This document shows, one piece after another, positions 31,515 through 43,997 of a stretch of DNA of 64,000 nt (position 1 is its first letter; every line of letters begins with the position of its first letter). The notes beneath the pieces were generated by a model. That model was not told the origin of the DNA. It saw only the letters and a program-made list of their open reading frames with translations, and made no database searches. The stretch spans positions 1,088,001 through 1,152,000 of the forward strand of contig OZ242005.1 in the NCBI GenBank assembly GCA_965204725.1, read 5' to 3'. Origin of the DNA: Candidatus Latescibacterota bacterium (lineage in GTDB: Bacteria; Latescibacterota; UBA2968; UBA8231). The position numbers and the translations under genes are program-made.

Positions 31515-34500
31515 ATGGATGTGGACTCACTCCTTACCTACGACATTGAAAATGAGAACGCCGAATTTGTCACCGAGGCGGACTGGATACCTAGCTTCTG
31601 GAATTTCCTACTTGGCCTTGAGCGCAATGATCTAATAGCTGAACTCATTCAAAACGATCTCGACCAGAATGCAACGCGCACCGTCATTTCGTTTGAACAG
31701 GACCAGCTCGTCTGTGAAGGCAACGGTAAACCAGTGGAGCCCGAAGGCTGGCAGCGGCTTCGTAAAATTCAGGGTGCCGGCGATAGTGTTCCCGCCAAAC
31801 GCAGGGGGATTGGAATAAAGAATCACGGTCTGAAGACTGCGTTCACGATTGGCGATGAAATCCGTATATCATCGGACGGACAGTCAATATCTCAAACACT
31901 TTACGCTCACGGACGGAACAGTGCTCCATATCCTGGTGCATACCCAGAACCACGACCTGATCCGCAGGCACCCCGCAAGGGATGTCGTGTCATCATCAGA
32001 TACCGAGACAAGAATATTGAGCCTCGCGAGGGCGAAGCAATCGTCTTCGACGCTATCAGCACACAAGACATTGACGATCTATTCAAATCGGCCTGTTCTA
32101 GCACCCCCGAGCAATTTGTCGGCATCGTTTCGCCAAGAGTGGTGCCGCAATATGAGATCATCCTTCGTCATTGGCGTCTTGGCGAGGCGCGATTCGTGTT
32201 TTCCTGTAGACAGCGGAAGGCTGCTAGAGGCATCGAAATCTTTCGCAGGCGTTGTTCTGTCAGTGGGACCGCATCGTCCCTAGCCTCCAGTGTACAAGAA
32301 GAAGCGGTCCGCCGTTTGCTCCCTCTGAGTGGGCACCTAAATCAGCGTATCGCTGATTTTTATCGAAGCCGAAACCGCTTTTTTGTTGAAGTATCTTGGC
32401 CGATAGATGGACGCGGTAAACCGAGAACGGGAACCGGAAGATTCCGGTATCCTATTGGCTACCCTGACGGTTTACAGGCGCGAACAGGACACGGCGCATC
32501 TTTCAATGCGCCCTTTGTATCGGACACAGAGCGACATGGCTTAGCACGGAATAATGAAACCAATAAGAAACTACGCGAAGACTGCGAGAAACTGCTGGCC
32601 GACGTGCTCGCGCGCCATACCATCCCGCGCTGGGGACCTGATGGGCTCAACCCGCTAGTGCCAATCCCGAACTCCGACAATGAAGCTGAGGCAGTGCGAC
32701 CGTTGCTAACAGCACTAGCTCGGCGTGGTGCCATGCCGACACTCAGGTGGAGAGCCGCGGCGGTCCGAGTACTTAAGAGCAAGAAACAGAAAGCTAGTGC
32801 CAGAGCGGCTACTAAACAAAGGCCTAAGGAACCGCAGCAGTACCGTTTTGTTGTGCCGACTATGAGAAAATCGGAGGTGATTCACGCTTCTCTGTCTGTA
32901 ATCTGTCCCCTCTCGGAAAGACAACTTGATCCACGAGTTCATCAGGACATCGTACGGCTTCTATCGGATGGATGTACAGACGGTTTTTGCGAGGACTTCA
33001 AAACTTTCGATGAAAAAGACGCACTAAGCAGGGCTAAGGGCGAAGGCAATAAGTACTTTGCCGTGTCCAATAACCTTGAGCGAGAATTCGCGCAGCCGCT
33101 CATCGCGTACTCCTATTTGGACGTGATTGAGGAGTCGATAGAGGAGGACAAGTGCAATGCGGGGGAAATTTCATCGTTGCAGGAGGCTCTGTTGCTTCCC
33201 GATGTACACGCCAAATCAGCACGATTCAAAGACTTACATGCCAGCGCACCCCTTCCTGCGGATATACCGGGCTTATGCCTGCCACCAATTTTGCATCAGG
33301 ATTTGGCGTCCCATCCGATCTTTCGGCGTACTAAATGGAAAAGGCCAAAGTACACGATGGAGAAGTTTCTAGGAGGTGGGGTGCTTCAGAATGCGGATGA
33401 GCAAATACGTAAACTGTTCTGGAAGTGGTTATGTCGGAACGAACACAGCATTGGGCCACGTGAACGCACCAAACTGGCTGACATAGAAATATGGCCAGAT
33501 GCTGACGGTAAACTCTGCAAGCTTTCGGCCCTCTGCGATGTGCGATCCCAGCGCATTGCAACAATTCTCGGTGATTCAATCCGCAGGCCACATGAGCATG
33601 TACGTCAATTAAGAAGGATAGTTTCTTTTGGTAAAAAACGCCGAACATCTATCCGTTGCTTCCCTTCGCAAGACGAAATTGCTGACTGGATCGAAAGACG
33701 CATAGCACCTCTTGTACCCGACGACACGCCGGACGCAGACACCATTGTCGCTCTACAATGCTTTGAAGCCGACTTGATGATTCTCCTGAAAAACCCAGTC
33801 ATCGCTCGTATGCTCAACGCGGCAGAAATGACTTTGCCGGCACTTGCGCAAGATGGCTCGATCCGACCACGAGAAGGGCTAGTCCTGCCGAGCAAGAATA
33901 TTGAGCGACTTGCATTGAGAAAACGGTTTCTGCTCAAGACCAATCGTCGTACTACCGCACTCAACAAGCTATCGCCGGCCCTGTCCGAGCCAACGGCGGC
34001 AATGCTCATCTGCACGTTAGACGAGGATCGTGAAAACTTCGGTGCCTTGCAGGCACGCCTTCGTCAGTTCATGGCGTTGACCCGACACTCGGATTGCTAT
34101 CGGGACCGACTTTCCAGTATGGAGATCCTCCCGGTTGGTGGCTGTCCTCGGTCTCCGAATGATTTGGCGTTCAAAAGTAAGAAGGGAGACTATTGGGGTA
34201 ACTGGAAAACCCAGATTTGGCCAACGGGTCTATCTCAAGACGATCAGCAACGTTACCGGGAGGCTGGTGTCACGTCAGCTTTCCCGACCAGTGAAACTAG
34301 CCGTGCCTTTTTTCAATGGCTATCGCAGCAGGATGAGGCGGTTCTGAGGAGTCATGTCAGTTGCGTACTTCGCCACATAGTACATCAAAACGGACCTGAG
34401 AGTTGGGCCGAAGTCTTTACGGACATACCATTCATCGTAGTGAAAAATAGCAGGGGCTTGCAGCTCGTACCTTTGCACACGGCGCGTCGCCGCCCGGTCT

Positions 34501-35780
34501 ATCTACCCGATGCAGAAAAAGAGATCGCTGACGCAGTGGTTGAGAATGATCCAGGTGTTTTGCTGGTCATAGACCGAGTCAAAGAAGTTTCCGAACCAAT
34601 CTCCGAGCCATTGCGGAGACTGGGTGTAAAATCGCTCCGTGAAAAAATCGGTGAACCTGAGCGAGTTGTCGGAAATGGCAACATCCAACAGGCTCCCCCC
34701 AAGGTCCTTCGCGGGGTTGCCGCTCTACTCCGCCCGAAGTTCCGCTGTACATTCCGCAAGCATATCGTTGAACTTGGCGTTGAATCCGATCTGTTATGGA
34801 ACGACTGGCATGACCGGCTGTCGCGCATTAAAGAGGTACGATTCGCTGACAGTGTTGAAGCGCACTACCGCTTTCGCCGCAAGCCATATCCCATCGCAGT
34901 TGACGCCGGATTTGATCCTGACTCCCGCATATTCTGGATCAAGGAAGGGTACGGACTGCGTAGCCTCTACGAAACCATTGCGAAGCAACTGGTCTTCAAG
35001 CCGACTGCAAAACCTATACATTTTATGGCTTTGCAGCGGGTACTAGAATTGGAGTCTCACGATCCGAGTTTCGGGTCCCCGGATCCCACGATTCTGGAGA
35101 ATGGGGAAAGCATCTTGGACGAAGAAACTCTCGATACAGATAGTGAATCCAGCGATAACGGCACTGGAGAGGCCAGACTCGGGCACTCTCCTTTTAAGCC
35201 TGATCCCCAGGGGAACGTTCCGAGACCTAGCCCTATCTCATCTACCTCAAGCGTAGCCTCGCCACCGGGCGAACACGGAGCGACTAATGGGAACAGCCCA
35301 AGTAAAGGCGGCAGCAACAACGAATCCGCACCGGAACTTGAGAAGAAGCATATCGGGGAATTGAAGCAGGATCATTATGCGAGTCACTGTCAGATGTGCC
35401 TTTGCAAACGGCCACCTCAAGAGCTTGCCCCGGTCGACAGCTATATTGAGTGGGAGGAAGTACGGCGGCATGTCGTAGAAGCCCATCATGTCGATCTAAA
35501 ATCAGCCGGCGGTGCTCGCCACGCCGGAAATCTAATCTTGTTATGCAAGTTACACCACAATAATTATGGTCGGCGGCTTACACGTATAGCGATAATCGAT
35601 GCTCTTCGGGGCCAGAAAAAAGACAAGGAGATTTGCTTTGGTGTAGGTGTGGTAAAGGGCCAATCCATAAAAATTGAGCTCCCGGATACAGATGAAGTCG
35701 TTGAAGTCTTTTTCACAAACGATCATGCCGATTATTGGCTTTCTGTTGGCGGAGCAGACGGTCTTGGCATCGATTCCTAA
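31515..35780 (+). CDS. 1421-aa protein with sacsin-like GHKL ATPase N-terminus and C-terminal HNH nuclease
   Basis: ELIQNDLD, GNG, GIKNHGLKTAF motifs; C-terminal CQMC...VEAHH...GNLILLCKLHH; lower GC. Confidence 0.75.
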   Translation: MDVDSLLTYDIENENAEFVTEADWIPSFWNFLLGLERNDLIAELIQNDLDQNATRTVISFEQDQLVCEGNGKPVEPEGWQRLRKIQGAGDSVPAKRRGIGIKNHGLKTAFTIGDEIRISSDGQSISQTLYAHGRNSAPYPGAYPEPRPDPQAPRKGCRVIIRYRDKNIEPREGEAIVFDAISTQDIDDLFKSACSSTPEQFVGIVSPRVVPQYEIILRHWRLGEARFVFSCRQRKAARGIEIFRRRCSVSGTASSLASSVQEEAVRRLLPLSGHLNQRIADFYRSRNRFFVEVSWPIDGRGKPRTGTGRFRYPIGYPDGLQARTGHGASFNAPFVSDTERHGLARNNETNKKLREDCEKLLADVLARHTIPRWGPDGLNPLVPIPNSDNEAEAVRPLLTALARRGAMPTLRWRAAAVRVLKSKKQKASARAATKQRPKEPQQYRFVVPTMRKSEVIHASLSVICPLSERQLDPRVHQDIVRLLSDGCTDGFCEDFKTFDEKDALSRAKGEGNKYFAVSNNLEREFAQPLIAYSYLDVIEESIEEDKCNAGEISSLQEALLLPDVHAKSARFKDLHASAPLPADIPGLCLPPILHQDLASHPIFRRTKWKRPKYTMEKFLGGGVLQNADEQIRKLFWKWLCRNEHSIGPRERTKLADIEIWPDADGKLCKLSALCDVRSQRIATILGDSIRRPHEHVRQLRRIVSFGKKRRTSIRCFPSQDEIADWIERRIAPLVPDDTPDADTIVALQCFEADLMILLKNPVIARMLNAAEMTLPALAQDGSIRPREGLVLPSKNIERLALRKRFLLKTNRRTTALNKLSPALSEPTAAMLICTLDEDRENFGALQARLRQFMALTRHSDCYRDRLSSMEILPVGGCPRSPNDLAFKSKKGDYWGNWKTQIWPTGLSQDDQQRYREAGVTSAFPTSETSRAFFQWLSQQDEAVLRSHVSCVLRHIVHQNGPESWAEVFTDIPFIVVKNSRGLQLVPLHTARRRPVYLPDAEKEIADAVVENDPGVLLVIDRVKEVSEPISEPLRRLGVKSLREKIGEPERVVGNGNIQQAPPKVLRGVAALLRPKFRCTFRKHIVELGVESDLLWNDWHDRLSRIKEVRFADSVEAHYRFRRKPYPIAVDAGFDPDSRIFWIKEGYGLRSLYETIAKQLVFKPTAKPIHFMALQRVLELESHDPSFGSPDPTILENGESILDEETLDTDSESSDNGTGEARLGHSPFKPDPQGNVPRPSPISSTSSVASPPGEHGATNGNSPSKGGSNNESAPELEKKHIGELKQDHYASHCQMCLCKRPPQELAPVDSYIEWEEVRRHVVEAHHVDLKSAGGARHAGNLILLCKLHHNNYGRRLTRIAIIDALRGQKKDKEICFGVGVVKGQSIKIELPDTDEVVEVFFTNDHADYWLSVGGADGLGIDS

Positions 35781-35799
35781 CGCGCTTGCGGCCCGAGTA
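35771..35799 (+). repeat. 29-bp direct repeat, right copy
   Basis: cgattcctaacgcgcttgcggcccgagta; supplies the TAA stop of the 1421-aa gene and ends 1 bp before the tyrS stop. Confidence 0.9.
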
Positions 35800-35800
35800 G

Positions 35801-37051
35801 CTAGCAGACGAGGGTGTACTTTTTTTTGCCGCGGCGCACGATCCAGTATTTGCCGTGTAGGCCCTCTGGGCGTCGCATGATCCGCGCCAAGTCCGTGCAG
35901 CGCTCGCCGTTGATATAGATGGAGCCGTTTTGCACGTCTTGGCGGGCTTGGCGCTTGGAGGAAGAGACGCCGGCCGCGACGAGCAGATCAATTAGTCCGA
36001 GTTCCTCCCGATCCATCGCGTGCGTTGGCACGTCGCCAAAGCCTTCGAGGATTTCGTCCTCGGATAGGTCCTGAAAAGCCCCGTAAAAGAGTGCGTGCGA
36101 GATGCGTTCGGCGCGGTGTGCGGCGTCGGCTCCATGCACTAAGGTCGTTACTTGGGCTGCGAGGGTGCGCTGGGCTTCGCGCCGCTCGGGCCGGTCGCGG
36201 ACGGTTTCGGCGAGCTGGAGGATCGCGTCTTGCTCCAAGAAGGTGTACGTTTTCAGGTAATCGACGACCTTCAGGTCCTCGGCGTTGATCCAGAACTGGT
36301 AAAACTGATAGGCCGAGGTCTTAGCAGCGTCGAGCCAGATCGTGCCCGCTTCGGTCTTGCCGAATTTAGTGCCGTCTGCTTTGGTCACGAGCGGGCAAGT
36401 CAGGCCAAAGGCCCGGTTGCCGGCGCGGCGGCGGATCAGGTCGGTGCCAGCGGTGATATTGCCCCACTGATCCGAGCCGCCAGTCTGCAACTCGCAGCCG
36501 TATTCTCGATTGAGGACCCAGAAGTCATAAGCCTGTAGCACCATGTAGCTGAACTCGGTGTAGGAAATGCCCGCTTCCAAGCGCGAGGCGACCGAGTCCT
36601 TGGCTAGCATGTAGGATACTGGAAAGTGCTTGCCGACGTCGCGCATAAAGTCGATGGCCGCGAGTTGGCTGAGCCAGTCGTAGTTGTTGACCGCGATGGC
36701 AGGGTTGGGGCCATCGAACTCTAGGAAGCGCGATAGCTGGGCTTTGACCTGCTCAGTCCATGCGGCCACCACGTCGTCGGCATTGAGTTGGCGTTCCTCG
36801 GCCTTGCCGCTTGGATCGCCAATCAGGCCGGTGCCGCCGCCGGCTAGGGCAATGACCTTGTGACCGGCGAGTTGGAAGCGGCGCAGGAGCAGGATCGGCA
36901 CGAGGTTGCCTACCGTCAGGCTGTCAGCGGTTGGGTCGAAGCCGTTGTAGAGCGTGAGCGGACCGGCCGCGAGGCGCTCGGCGAGGCCATCGAGGTCGGT
37001 GGCTTGGTAAATCAAGCCGCGAAATTGCAGATCGGGTATGATGTTCATCAC
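35801..37051 (-). CDS. tyrS: Tyrosine-tRNA ligase
   Basis: GFDPTADSL, IGDPSG, EFSY..LQAYDF, GGSDQWGNI, KFGKT motifs and S4 domain ending RRGKK. Confidence 0.97.
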   Translation of the reverse strand: MMNIIPDLQFRGLIYQATDLDGLAERLAAGPLTLYNGFDPTADSLTVGNLVPILLLRRFQLAGHKVIALAGGGTGLIGDPSGKAEERQLNADDVVAAWTEQVKAQLSRFLEFDGPNPAIAVNNYDWLSQLAAIDFMRDVGKHFPVSYMLAKDSVASRLEAGISYTEFSYMVLQAYDFWVLNREYGCELQTGGSDQWGNITAGTDLIRRRAGNRAFGLTCPLVTKADGTKFGKTEAGTIWLDAAKTSAYQFYQFWINAEDLKVVDYLKTYTFLEQDAILQLAETVRDRPERREAQRTLAAQVTTLVHGADAAHRAERISHALFYGAFQDLSEDEILEGFGDVPTHAMDREELGLIDLLVAAGVSSSKRQARQDVQNGSIYINGERCTDLARIMRRPEGLHGKYWIVRRGKKKYTLVC

Positions 37052-37075
37052 AGGTCCTTAATTCCTTATGGGCAT

Positions 37076-37102
37076 AAAAAAAGCCCCTGTAATCAGGGGC
37101 TT
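37076..37102 (-). terminator. Intrinsic terminator in the tyrS leader (attenuator)
   Basis: Minus strand AAGCCCCTG-ATTA-CAGGGGCTT running into a 7-U tract. Confidence 0.85.
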
Positions 37103-37134
37103 GTAAACGCGGTTGGGACGATAAAACGAGCGCA

Positions 37135-37197
37135 CTACCCCTCTGTGTGACGCGAATAATAGGGGTAGCGGCGATCAGGGCGTACGGTCTGCATCAT
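37135..37197 (-). CDS. Putative tyrS leader peptide MMQTVRPDRRYPYYSRHTEG
   Basis: RBS GGAG at 37203-37206; three Tyr codons (TAC, TAT, TAT) within four codons; followed by the terminator. Confidence 0.8.
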   Translation of the reverse strand: MMQTVRPDRRYPYYSRHTEG

Positions 37198-37213
37198 TCA
37201 TTCTCCGCACAAA

Positions 37214-37242
37214 AATATAGCCGCGCCCTCTATCCCAGTCAA
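37214..37242 (-). promoter_or_regulatory. sigma70 promoter of the tyrS leader
   Basis: TTGACT-N17-TATATT. Confidence 0.7.
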
Positions 37243-38495
37243 TCGCCCCGATAGCCCTGTGCGGCCCAGACTTTTCGGGCCAGCTTTTTCGCCTCGGCCG
37301 AAGGTTCGATTGCGCCCAAAAGACTGCTTGGCGGCTGCCCTTGCTTTTTGCGCTCGGGGTCGGGCGACCAGTCGTCTTGGGCGTATTTTCGGCGCACGGA
37401 CTCGCGGCGGAAATCGGGCACTTCCATCGGTGCCGAGTCGTTGAGCGCGGACCGCCACGCTTGAATCCCGGCGATGCTCATGTCGAGGCCGCGGTACACG
37501 TCGAGATAGGGTGGCTCGCCAGTGCGGATGGCCTCGGCAAAGTGGTAGCTGGTGAAAAAGTCGCCGCCGCCGTGGCCGGTGCGAGTGGCTTGGGCGCGAT
37601 GCACGGGGAAGTCGGGCTTGTACACCGTTTCGACCGGATCGCGCTCGCGCTTTTCCCACGGCTCGTACCACACGCGCAGCCGCTGTTTGTCGCCGTGGCG
37701 GCAGTTTTCCATCACCCCCTTGTTGCCGTGGATGCGGACGTAGTTGCCGTGGCCGCGCAACGCGCCGTGCAGCGACTTCATCACCGCGTCGTTGTCCATC
37801 CGGCAGATGATCACCGCGGCCGTGTCGCTGCGGTTCACGTGCAGCGTTTGGGTGGGATCGGCGAAATCATAAGGGATGACAAAGCCGTTTACTTTTACGG
37901 GCCGGGTGTCGGTGATGTATAGGACCGGGGCGATGGAATGGGTGCAGTAGTATGTGGCGGGGATCCAGTTGCGCCAGTGGTCGCGCCCGCAACTGCGCGC
38001 CAGCTTCACTTCGGCCGGGTCGGGATGGACGTACTCGCCCTCGCCGTATTTGAACTCGCCGACGCGGCCCTTTTGGTAGAGCCGCCTCATCTCCTGATTG
38101 AAGACCATGTAGGGATAGTTCTCGGCGAACATGTAAATCTGGCCGCTTTGCTCGACCGCTCGCGCCAGTGCCACGCCTTCGCCCAAGGTGTGGCAGGCCG
38201 CGGTCTCGCTCATTACGTGTTTGCCGGCGTTGAGTGCTTTGATGGCAAACGGGGCGTGCTGGTGGAAGTAGTTGGCGAGCACGACCGCGTCGAGGTCGCA
38301 GCCGAGAAATTCGTCGTAATCGACGAATGTCGGCACGTTGAGAGCCTTGCCCTCTGCAATGAGGCGTTCTTCCCAGATGTCGCAAATGGCGACTAGCTCC
38401 ATGCTGGTCGCAGCGGCGGCCTGCATGAAGGAGCGACCGCGACCGACGCCGACTACGCCGACTCGGATGGGATGTGGTTTGCCGCGTTTTTTCAT
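37239..38495 (-). CDS. Gfo/Idh/MocA oxidoreductase
   Basis: VGVVGVGRG, AGKHVMSE, AENY, YCTH, GHGGGD motifs. Confidence 0.9.
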   Translation of the reverse strand: MKKRGKPHPIRVGVVGVGRGRSFMQAAAATSMELVAICDIWEERLIAEGKALNVPTFVDYDEFLGCDLDAVVLANYFHQHAPFAIKALNAGKHVMSETAACHTLGEGVALARAVEQSGQIYMFAENYPYMVFNQEMRRLYQKGRVGEFKYGEGEYVHPDPAEVKLARSCGRDHWRNWIPATYYCTHSIAPVLYITDTRPVKVNGFVIPYDFADPTQTLHVNRSDTAAVIICRMDNDAVMKSLHGALRGHGNYVRIHGNKGVMENCRHGDKQRLRVWYEPWEKRERDPVETVYKPDFPVHRAQATRTGHGGGDFFTSYHFAEAIRTGEPPYLDVYRGLDMSIAGIQAWRSALNDSAPMEVPDFRRESVRRKYAQDDWSPDPERKKQGQPPSSLLGAIEPSAEAKKLARKVWAAQGYRGD

Positions 38496-38510
38496 GGTTT
38501 AAGCCGATGT

Positions 38511-39194
38511 CTAAGGGGCCGCCTGTTCCTTCCCTGCGGCGGCATCCACGTACTCCTTCACCAAAAGAAGGTCTTCCATGGAGCCGCCCAACAGCAGCTC
38601 CAACGGCTCTCGTTCATCTAGCAAGGGGTGCCGTTCGCGCAGCCATTCGTTTTCAACTTCCAAATCGCGAAAGAGCGAGGACAGCGTCGCTCTGATATGA
38701 AAAAGATGGGCAATTCGATCTCGAATGTCTCGGCCGTGCAGGTCAGCAGCTCCTGCCAAAATCGCTCGCACGAGATTGTTGTCCGTCTGATCGAATCCCA
38801 GCAGGGGGACCGCATCGTCTCTGCTCAAATGCCAGTTCTCAAGCAATTTCAAGACGAACTGAATTGGTCCGCTGACCCGTTTCGGCGCAAAGACACTTAG
38901 TTTCCAACTCACAACGTCGGAACCGACATCTGACGAGTGAACTGCGATAAGTCCCAACGTTGACTTATATGCAGACGAACCGCTAGCGAAGGAAGGAAAG
39001 GCAGGTCTCGGCTTCCACTGATAAAAGTGGCTCGCATGTAAACCAGCCCCGACTTTGGACGGTCCATCATAGCCGGAGTTTCGCATTAAGAGGGAGTCAT
39101 TAGCTCCTTCTCCAAGAGCCGGTCCTAATAGTTCTGTTGCAGTCGTCATGTTAGTTCCACCTGAATCCGCGACAGTATCCCGCCTATCAGACAA
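38511..39194 (-). CDS. Xre/MbcA/ParS-type antitoxin (C-terminal toxin-binding domain), orphan
   Basis: C-terminal LSSLF...EWLRERHPLLDEREPLELLLGG; start uncertain; no RES toxin adjacent. Confidence 0.65.
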   Translation of the reverse strand: MSDRRDTVADSGGTNMTTATELLGPALGEGANDSLLMRNSGYDGPSKVGAGLHASHFYQWKPRPAFPSFASGSSAYKSTLGLIAVHSSDVGSDVVSWKLSVFAPKRVSGPIQFVLKLLENWHLSRDDAVPLLGFDQTDNNLVRAILAGAADLHGRDIRDRIAHLFHIRATLSSLFRDLEVENEWLRERHPLLDEREPLELLLGGSMEDLLLVKEYVDAAAGKEQAAP

Positions 39195-39309
39195 TACTGT
39201 TCCAACTTCCTAATCGATATACGTCTAATAAGACTGTAATTGATACTCTGTCAATCTACCCCGACCCGCTAACGACGGATCGAGTACGTTCAGGCGGCGA
39301 TAGGGGCAC

Positions 39310-40653
39310 CTAAAACGTCGAGGGTTTGGGCGTTGCTGGGGGCCAGTAGCCGTCGGGATCTTCGTCCCACGCTGCGCCGCACATCCGCGAGATAACCGCC
39401 CATTCCGCTGCGGTCAGGTGGGCGTGGTTGTGGAAGAGGAAGCGTTGCAGCCCGGCCGCTTCCGACGCTTGGAGAATGTGGAAGAGGTCGCCGGCGGTCA
39501 TGGGGTCGCCGCCGTGGGGCATGCGCCCGGTATCGACCCAAGGTAGAATTTTTTGCGGGTCGCCGACCGCGGCCATGGCGCGGCGCGTCTCTTCCTGTAC
39601 CACCTCGTTGAAAAACGCCGGTGGAAACCCCAACTCCAAGTCGGCGAGGCACTCCACCTCGGGCAGGCGGACGCCGAGCCAAGCGCGGACGACGGTCCAG
39701 CACTGGGCCTCGCTCAACGCTGGATTCCATTCCCCAATCTGCCGCACCCAACGGGCGATTGTGCCGTATAGGCCGTCGAAGCCGCGATGCCAGAAGTAGT
39801 GCTTGACCAAGAGCAAATCCACGATTTGGCCCCAAGCGCAGAAGTCGAGTGCGGTCATGCCGGAAAACACGGCCGAGCGCGGGCCGTTGCCCAACAGCAG
39901 GGGGCGCGGCAACTCGTTGAGGGCTTGGCGGAAGGCGCGTCCTTGGCGGATGCTGTCTTCGCGTCGCCAGCGCAGCCAATAGAGCGCGTCCTCGTTGATG
40001 TCGAAAAGGTTCATCTCCGAGAGCACGCCGTAGGCGCCGTAGTAATCTACTTCGGCGGGCGTGAAGGACTGGAAGCGCCGGTGCAAGTGCTGGCGGCCCC
40101 GATCGAGCCGCGCCGCGTCGTAGCCTCTGGCCGTTGCCTCTTGGCGCTGGCCGTCGCTGAGCGGGCGGAAAACCGCATTGCCGTGGTGATACGTTAGCTC
40201 GTAGGCCGACTCGGTCCAGCCATCGACAATGCCGCCATCGGCTTCGGGGAACGCCGCGAAGATGTCCTCCCAAGCCGCAGCGCGTAGCTCGGTGCCGTAG
40301 GGATCGTCCGCCAACGGCAATCCCTCGGCGGCAATGGCGCCAGAGGCCGGCGCGAAGATCATCAGGGTCCAGCCGCGATCTTTGGCGTTGGCCAGCATGG
40401 CATGTAGCCGCTTTTCTTTGGCAGGTTGCAGGGGCACATCGCGCCGGTGGGCTTTGAGGCCGCGCTTTTGGTAGGGCGCGAGATCGCCCTTGAACGCGGG
40501 TATGGTGTACTGGCCCTGCTCGTCGGCAAACAGCAGGCGGCCAAAGACTAGGCCGCGGATGCCGCCTTGTTCCCAAGCGTCGAAGATGCACTCGTAGTCG
40601 GACAGGACCGTCTCTAAGGGCTGGCCGATGCGAATCCAAGGGGTCAGAGCCAT
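39310..40653 (-). CDS. Hypothetical protein (possible TIM-barrel)
   Basis: Long ORF with host-like codon usage and RBS GGAGA; no recognised catalytic motif. Confidence 0.7.
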   Translation of the reverse strand: MALTPWIRIGQPLETVLSDYECIFDAWEQGGIRGLVFGRLLFADEQGQYTIPAFKGDLAPYQKRGLKAHRRDVPLQPAKEKRLHAMLANAKDRGWTLMIFAPASGAIAAEGLPLADDPYGTELRAAAWEDIFAAFPEADGGIVDGWTESAYELTYHHGNAVFRPLSDGQRQEATARGYDAARLDRGRQHLHRRFQSFTPAEVDYYGAYGVLSEMNLFDINEDALYWLRWRREDSIRQGRAFRQALNELPRPLLLGNGPRSAVFSGMTALDFCAWGQIVDLLLVKHYFWHRGFDGLYGTIARWVRQIGEWNPALSEAQCWTVVRAWLGVRLPEVECLADLELGFPPAFFNEVVQEETRRAMAAVGDPQKILPWVDTGRMPHGGDPMTAGDLFHILQASEAAGLQRFLFHNHAHLTAAEWAVISRMCGAAWDEDPDGYWPPATPKPSTF

Positions 40654-40819
40654 GGCGTGTTCTCCCGTTGATGGGCAGGGCAATATATCGCGTGGGTGGG
40701 GCGGCGTCCATTTCCTTGCGGCCTTGTAGCTTTTCGGCTACGCTGTTTCCATGCCGGAGGCGGCCTTCGGTAGCCGCAGTCCGCGATCCCGCAGCCATCT
40801 AAACAAGGAGATAAGCATA

Positions 40820-43920: not shown

Positions 43921-43997
43921 GGGCGGTTAGCTCAGTTGGTCAGAGCGCCTGCCTTACAAGCAGGATGTCCCCAGTTCGAGTCTGGGATCGCCCACCA
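43921..43997 (+). tRNA. tRNA-Val(TAC)
   Basis: GGGCGGT/ATCGCCC acceptor stem, TAGCTCAGTTGG D arm, CCTGC-CTTACAA-GCAGG anticodon arm, TTCGAG T loop, encoded CCA. Confidence 0.97.

Follow-up and report, generated by a model that had tools for sequence, protein, structure and literature searches.

How transcription of tyrS, the gene for tyrosine--tRNA ligase, is adjusted to need is the question raised by a small element on contig OZ242005.1 of a Candidatus Latescibacterota genome. The window, that is, the whole stretch of 64,000 nucleotides that was analysed, carries tyrS on its minus strand, and the initial annotation had read the sequence directly before the gene as a promoter, an RBS, a Tyr-rich leader peptide, and a GC hairpin followed by seven U residues. 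Judging from sequence comparison, this element is very probably a classical ribosome-mediated (leader-peptide) attenuator, which would couple the transcription of tyrS to the supply of charged tRNA-Tyr through a presumed response to tyrosine. The evidence for this reading, and the alternatives that were weighed against it, are described below.

Organization of the tyrS locus

The product of tyrS was identified by Pfam tRNA-synt_1b (265 bits) together with the SYY C-terminal and S4 domains, and by NCBIfam TIGR00234 (404.5 bits against a cut-off of 113.8), and a single copy of the gene was found in the genome. According to the genus alignment, the start conserved in relatives was the ATG at 37048 and not the GTG at 37051. 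The surroundings of the gene included a 1421-aa frame that converges on tyrS from downstream (31515-35780, plus strand) and a 502-aa frame (39290-40798, minus strand), both without a Pfam match, as well as a 227-aa frame (38511-39194, minus strand) with an Xre/MbcA/ParS antitoxin C-terminal domain. The 64-kb window contained one tRNA gene, tRNA-Val at 43921-43997.

All of the elements described in the initial annotation were found on the minus strand, in the order and at the places that it had given. The positions are summarized in Table 1, which also lists two candidate leaders from elsewhere in the genome. The whole element comprised approximately 165 nt, with a leader of approximately 130 nt. 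Its -35 hexamer overlapped the stop codon of the GFO/IDH/MocA gene that lies upstream. The two hexamers, separated by a spacer of 17, together matched the consensus at 10 of 12 positions. This promoter (37242-37214) was the sole promoter-like site detected on either strand of 35500-39500, while dinucleotide shuffles of the same region contained 1.3 sites on average. As the scan detected no promoter-like site between the terminator and tyrS, the gene must be transcribed through the hairpin.

Table 1. Features of the tyrS leader and of two candidate leaders elsewhere in the genome
Feature	Position	Strand	Remark
-35 hexamer	37242-37237	-	First five bases invariant in 23 of 23 genus loci
-10 hexamer	37219-37214	-	Five of six positions invariant in the 23-sequence alignment
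Shine-Dalgarno of leader frame	37206-37203	-	Present in 19 of 23 aligned sequences
Leader peptide frame, 20 codons from first ATG	37197-37135	-	TAG stop at 37137-37135
Regulatory codons Tyr, Pro, Tyr, Tyr	37167-37156	-	Runs of 2-6 Tyr here in relatives
Segment 1, 5' side of the helix sequestering segment 2 without a ribosome	37172-37161	-	Minimum-free-energy fold; putative function
Segment 2, with G-run 37141-37138 and the stop codon	37142-37130	-	Partner is segment 1 or the terminator 5' arm
Intrinsic terminator	37102-37076	-	Stem 37102-37094 / 37089-37081, loop 37093-37090, T-run 37082-37076
Shine-Dalgarno of tyrS	37059-37055	-	
tyrS (tyrosine--tRNA ligase), 415 aa from conserved ATG	35801-37048	-	Pfam, NCBIfam
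GFO/IDH/MocA oxidoreductase	38495-37239	-	Upstream same-strand gene
Candidate thrS leader	L185:2240-2362 (G000:C1:13539-13661)	-	13 codons, four consecutive Thr codons; outside the window
Tandem aspS candidate	L186:159-445 (G000:C1:4788358-4788644)	+	Two leader and terminator units; outside the window

The leader frame opened with two adjacent ATG codons, and the second of these (37194) was the start conserved in the genus alignment, from which the frame has 19 codons. It contained three Tyr codons only (37167-37165 and 37161-37156), with a Pro codon interrupting them, and the G-run near its end was the sole run of at least four G in the leader. The terminator stem consisted of nine pairs, six of them GC, closed by a 4-nt loop and followed by seven T; its 5' and 3' arms are referred to as segments 3 and 4. 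Folded alone, the hairpin had an energy of -15.5 kcal/mol, and the distance from its T-run to the start of tyrS was approximately 30 nt.

When the leader was folded without constraints, segment 1, which lies over the Tyr codons, and segment 2, which lies over the stop, formed a 12-bp helix, and the terminator formed as well. The initial annotation had paired two 8-nt segments, and both were contained in this predicted helix. The fold energy of the whole leader corresponded to z = -2.3 only, and thus the case for the element stands on conservation, not on folding energy. Assembled Logan contigs of four RNA-library runs contained small shares of the query words, and starts, ends, strand, and transcription are not readable from such contigs. 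In run X1, one 425-nt contig consisted of tyrS and the terminator (36852-37142) followed by sequence like the Tyr leader of a relative, and in run X4 one contig covered 37165-37244; transcription cannot be inferred from either contig.

Conservation of the element in the genus, family, and phylum

A TyrS search of 41 related genomes yielded 30 loci, of which 23 belonged to the same genus and seven to another genus of the class. In all 23 same-genus loci, tyrS was directly preceded by the promoter, the small frame, and the hairpin, and the core of the terminator stem was invariant in every one of these sequences. At least two adjacent Tyr residues, and up to six, were present in 22 of the 23 frames. 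The exception, L021 (G024:C22), had two non-adjacent Tyr and comes from a draft sequence whose leader contains N's. The assembly to which it belongs, G024, has a listed contamination of 6% and also contains, at the end of a contig, a DAHP synthase fragment preceded by an aromatic leader (L119, G024:C183). In the seven loci of the other genus, tyrS was placed directly behind another gene, and no leader was found.

These loci also bear on a simpler explanation, namely, that the hairpin merely terminates the GFO/IDH/MocA gene upstream and that the small frame is a chance ORF. In favor of it, this same-strand gene stops at 37239 in the window, and no separate terminator lies between its end and the hairpin. 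However, the upstream neighbor of the unit varied among the relatives: a same-strand GFO gene was found in L001, L018, and L019 and something else in L008 and L009, and most of the other same-genus loci had a divergent gene, yet the promoter, frame, and hairpin were kept and the unit stayed with tyrS. A chance frame is also at odds with the shuffle control of the Tyr frames described below (46 observed against a mean of 2.65). The explanation by a mere terminator was consequently considered barely credible.

To extend the comparison to the family, tyrS was sampled from every remaining genus, with one to four genomes each. Before counting, L113, L114, and L146 were left out as duplicates of L054, L058, and L057, as were L151, in which a contig ends inside the leader, and L119, which has no tyrS. 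An automatic caller, applied without hand-picking, detected a terminator and a Tyr-bearing frame in 14 of the 18 loci of other genera, and with the more distant loci added, the promoter, Tyr-bearing frame, and terminator were kept in 14 of the 18 genera of the family. The initial annotation had made its reading depend on the conservation of the Tyr codons in relatives, and they were found in 22 of 23 loci of the genus and in 14 of 18 genera of the family. No element was called at the remaining four loci (L142, L144, L153, and L154), among which L144 was a poor match at a contig start and L154 a tyrS match with internal stops. Even in distant tyrS loci, with proteins 66-71% identical, a promoter was present, together with a Tyr-bearing frame that had Gly codons at its end and a hairpin whose arm contained a C-run. 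Some genera had only one or two Tyr codons and no G-run (genus g22).

Moreover, a rigid pattern composed of two Tyr codons, 45-72 nt, the hairpin core, and a T-run was searched in 168 genomes of the phylum. It matched 38 of them, at one locus per genome and all in one family; besides the genome of the window, 37 of 75 family genomes were matched and 0 of 92 genomes in the other 13 families, where a miss of so narrow a pattern is not evidence of absence. The reversed pattern gave 0 matches in the same 168 genomes. Two of the 38 matches preceded a DAHP synthase gene and not tyrS.

A unit with its own promoter and a strong terminator could also be an independent small gene, encoding a micro-protein or a small RNA, with tyrS expressed without regulation by leaky read-through or from an unseen promoter. 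Weak, sub-threshold Rfam matches of the leader to several small-RNA families point in this direction, but they were driven by the terminator. In this case, however, it would be surprising that the unit was always directly upstream of tyrS, whatever lay further upstream, that only approximately 30 nt without a promoter-like site separate the T-run from the start of tyrS, that the peptide was conserved only in its Tyr run and Gly-rich end, and that the pattern occurred once per genome. An independent small gene was therefore regarded as very unlikely.

Tyr codons and translation of the leader frame

The amino acid content of the encoded peptides was determined from one leader per genus, i.e., from 14 leaders. 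Tyr accounted for 48 of the 273 leader residues (17.6%), a 5.7-fold enrichment over the long ORFs of the genome, in which it makes up 3.09%. Since related genomes are not independent, binomial figures for this set are indicative only. Among the other residues, Met was enriched 3.2-fold, reflecting the start codons, Arg 2.2-fold, and Thr 2.0-fold, while Phe was depleted (0.27-fold). Since the frames had been chosen for their Tyr content, the same choice was applied to shuffled spacers as a control. The summed best-frame Tyr count was 46, whereas 200 shuffles averaged 2.65 and never exceeded 13. In this test, one leader with a GTG start was counted as 0. For L057 and L021, the start of the frame had been set by hand. 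Two further properties of the codons were noted: in most genera, an Arg codon was located directly 5' of a Tyr codon (37156-37173 in the window, and the aligned leaders), and the Tyr codons of the leaders favored TAT, with 28 of 48 in one leader per genus and 95 of 144 overall, compared with 34% genome-wide.

The Tyr triplets followed the reading frame, with 48 of them in the frame of the leader and 3 in both other frames together. In the genus alignment, all three gap blocks within the frame were multiples of three (3, 6, and 9 columns), whereas outside the frame this was the case for 4 of 20. The two Tyr codons interchanged between relatives. Taken from the alignments, in-frame gaps, in-frame Tyr triplets, and codon interchange indicate selection on the reading frame, and the leader frame appears to be translated on account of its frame-preserving gaps and in-frame Tyr triplets.

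As an alternative, the attenuator might respond to the overall capacity for translation or to a different amino acid, for example Arg, with the Tyr codons being incidental or secondary. The 2.2-fold enrichment of Arg, the Arg codon that precedes a Tyr codon in most genera, and the genera that keep only one or two Tyr codons would all be compatible with this. However, the 5.7-fold enrichment of Tyr far exceeded that of any other residue, and Tyr matches the regulated gene; its runs extended to six codons, and the sister leader at the DAHP synthase gene, described below, switches to mixed aromatic codons. Sensing of Arg or of general translation was thus judged unlikely, and a leader that would report on charged tRNA-Tyr was preferred.

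Searches for T-boxes and other known leader families

In Firmicutes, tyrS is a classical T-box target, as the title of PMC2879506 indicates. Accordingly, the leader might be a ligand-, tRNA-, or protein-binding RNA switch, for example a divergent T-box or a TRAP-like target, in which the small frame is irrelevant; the logic of terminator and antiterminator is common to all such systems. The T-box family of Rfam (RF00230) gave no match in 36900-37450 even at E up to 10 and was absent from the whole genome, which is 94% complete. As a control of this search, the RF00230 scores were obtained in five control genomes, two of which were above the cut-off. Thus, the T-box covariance model, which the initial annotation had named as something that could explain the leader differently, explained it neither in the window nor in the genome. 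Moreover, the leader of approximately 130 nt is shorter than the 219-position T-box model, and the frame-preserving gaps and in-frame Tyr triplets point to translation. A binding RNA switch of this sort was therefore considered highly improbable.

At the gathering score, the only Rfam family matched in the whole window was tRNA (43921-43994), and none was matched at the leader. With E raised to 10, the leader gave sub-threshold, terminator-driven matches only. The best match of a leader type was Phe_leader (RF01859), with 24.4 bits against a gathering score of 55, and Trp_leader (RF00513) reached 15 bits against a gathering score of 41; in both cases, the aligned part was mainly the terminator.

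Proposed mechanism and predicted RNA switch

With the preferred leader-peptide attenuator, transcription would start from the conserved promoter approximately 10 nt before the leader start codon, and a ribosome would translate the frame of 19 or 20 codons while the RNA polymerase moves on. When Tyr-tRNA is plentiful, the ribosome would arrive at the stop codon and cover the G-run in the last codons (segment 2), so that the terminator hairpin would form and transcription would end approximately 30 nt before tyrS. When Tyr-tRNA is scarce, the ribosome would stall at the Tyr codons, 6-9 codons before the stop, and mask segment 1. The G-run, left free, would then bind the C-run in the newly made terminator 5' arm, so that the hairpin would not form and the polymerase would read into tyrS. 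If the leader is not translated, segments 1 and 2 would pair, and termination would be the default.

To compare this scheme with predicted structures, 44 leaders from 14 genera were folded with ViennaRNA. In the free fold, the terminator was formed in 43 of the 44 leaders, and segment 2 was likewise paired into the frame in 43, with its partner under a Tyr-stalled ribosome in 41 of these. Across genera, the partner of segment 2 resembled a copy of the terminator 3' arm. A stalled ribosome was simulated by masking the leader to 14 nt past a Tyr codon and cutting the transcript before the 3' arm. Under this condition, segment 2 and the terminator 5' arm were predicted to pair over 4 bp or more in 43 of 44 leaders. 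In the window leader, masking at the Tyr codons resulted in 6 bp between the stop-codon G-run and the terminator 5' arm, and in the genus, the antiterminator amounted to 5-7 bp of G-run with C-run. When the ribosome was instead placed on the stop codon, the 5' arm of the nascent RNA had at least three other partners in 34 of the 44 leaders and at most two paired bases in 10.

The position of the G-run was also conserved. Exactly one run of at least four G was present in the leaders of 12 of the 14 genera, and none in the other two. Relative to the first base of the stop codon, it started 4-16 nt upstream, where a terminating ribosome would cover it. Of the 12 runs, 11 started between -15 and +12 of the stop, an interval that makes up 26% of the region. 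Gly codons at the leader end were GGG in 14 of 24 cases, compared with 25% genome-wide.

In the case of the antiterminator, controls were also applied to the predicted pairing itself. In the 23-sequence genus alignment, RNAalifold returned the terminator only, without compensatory changes, and other pairs unlike the model; the terminator and the G-run were invariant within the genus, and consequently there was no covariation support for the alternative pairing. When the spacer was shuffled, a pairing of 4 bp or more with the C-rich arm persisted in 49-93% of the shuffles. For the nascent folds, z-scores ranged from +1.1 to -3.9, with only 5 of 14 below -2. After segment 2 was swapped between genera, the own partner had a mean rank of 6.6 compared with 7.5 expected, and 3358 of 20000 permutations were as good. 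The initial annotation had proposed that segment 2 can alternatively pair with the terminator 5' arm. This pairing was predicted and the position of its G-run was conserved, while covariation and a gain over the controls were not obtained. As the pairing was not better than in the shuffled or swapped controls, we continue to infer the antiterminator step, and from the position of the G-run, the modelled antiterminator is the likely mechanism.

Related leaders before other genes

As described previously, the rigid pattern was also matched before DAHP synthase genes. In one genus member, it preceded a fragment of such a gene, and the leader had 8 aromatic residues (Tyr, Phe, Trp) out of 20. A family search with the fragment revealed a DAHP synthase paralogue in several genera of the family. 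Among the 12 best paralogue loci (L155-L166), 10 had a promoter and a hairpin of the tyrS type, and their frames contained three or more Tyr, Phe, or Trp residues, with a maximum of 10 in 24. The hairpins and aromatic runs of these leaders were read from the sequences by eye (e.g., L155, G024:C183:23904-25712), and the aromatic run was weaker in two of the ten, L164 and L166. The housekeeping DAHP synthase paralogue, in contrast to these loci, had no aromatic run at the 18 loci inspected, and the genome of the window has this housekeeping paralogue only, without a leader. As far as the sequences tell, a Tyr-only leader at tyrS and a mixed aromatic leader at the first enzyme of the common pathway would be the arrangement that codon-matched sensing predicts.

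Two crude genome-wide scans for a leader followed by a terminator were also conducted. Both were noisy, and in the second, from which candidates at thrS and aspS were obtained, the tyrS leader itself failed the cut of p < 0.002. The terminator of the thrS candidate was located 24 nt before thrS, and its Thr codons comprised all four synonymous codons. In other genera, thrS was preceded by a terminator and longer leaders with Thr-rich stretches, which were less clear. The tandem units were located directly before one of two aspS paralogues, the first with five Asn codons and the second with five Asn codons and one Asp codon. This tandem arrangement was conserved in two other genera, where the AspRS was 82-88% identical. 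The second AspRS, approximately 43-44% identical, had no leader, and the genome also contains asnS.

From these candidates, it is as likely as not that this uncultured family, which may lack T-boxes, controls several of its translation and aromatic-pathway genes by leader-peptide attenuators with matching codons. These leaders may carry Tyr codons at tyrS, Tyr, Phe, and Trp codons at the second DAHP synthase, four Thr codons at thrS, and tandem Asn and Asp codons at the second aspartyl-tRNA synthetase. The units at tyrS and at the DAHP synthase gene may share one chassis, composed of the promoter, the G-run at the leader stop, and the hairpin with a C-run in its arm.

Comparison with known attenuators and implications

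A close parallel to the element is E. coli pheM-pheST, the attenuation of which is described in part of PMC11802643. In both cases, a leader frame with cognate codons and then an intrinsic terminator precede the synthetase gene, and stalling is expected to cause read-through (excerpts of PMC11802643 and PMC1262725). Unlike pheM-pheST, the present element combines Tyr codons with tyrS instead of Phe codons, belongs to an uncultured phylum, and has no sequence relationship to its counterpart. The arrangement of segments corresponds to that of E. coli trpL, with segment 1 over the regulatory codons, segment 2 at the stop, and segments 3 and 4 as the terminator; in contrast to trpL, the antiterminator here is short, at 5-7 bp in the genus, and without statistical support.

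Classical attenuators are known for pheST and predicted for trpS and leuS in Streptomyces, as far as the available portion of PMC1262725 goes. Similar to these predictions, the tyrS element is a computationally predicted attenuator of a synthetase gene outside proteobacteria, but the amino acid and the phylum differ. The same portion of PMC1262725 describes tyrosine genes as regulated by T-boxes. Compared with the T-box of Bacillus subtilis tyrS, the gene, the signal (charging of tRNA-Tyr), and the output (antitermination) would be the same. However, the T-box RNA, of approximately 200 nt, reads uncharged tRNA directly, whereas here a translated frame was indicated and no T-box was matched. 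In the case of the aromatic leaders at the DAHP synthase genes, the leader peptide aroR (Phe-Tyr-Phe) before aroF of C. glutamicum, on a DAHP synthase operon, is a precedent; according to the excerpt of PMC11802643, it responds to Phe and not to Tyr, unlike the tyrS leader, which is Tyr-only and would control a synthetase gene.

The mechanism is classical, but its use for this amino acid, on this target gene, and in this phylum is new within the literature searched. No paper with a Tyr-codon leader for tyrS was found in full-text searches, in agreement with the initial annotation, which knew of no characterized leader of this kind; the study of Lopatovskaya et al. 2010 was outside that scope and may bear on the novelty. 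It is reportedly a comparative study of the attenuation of amino-acid and aminoacyl-tRNA operons.

Published leader-peptide attenuation covers few amino acids and few synthetase genes; pheST was found, and trpS and leuS are only predicted, as far as the excerpt of PMC1262725 extends. A conserved Tyr leader on tyrS thus adds a new amino acid and a new target to leader-peptide attenuation. Since the element is small (approximately 165 nt) and self-contained, it is testable in a heterologous host, and it could serve as a sensor of tyrosine-tRNA charging. In biological terms, a phylum recognized from metagenomes only would solve the task of the Firmicutes T-box in a different way. If the wider set of leaders is real, it includes amino acids (Tyr and Asn) for which a published attenuator was not found, and this would be a lineage in which attenuators read by the ribosome took over the role that T-boxes have elsewhere.
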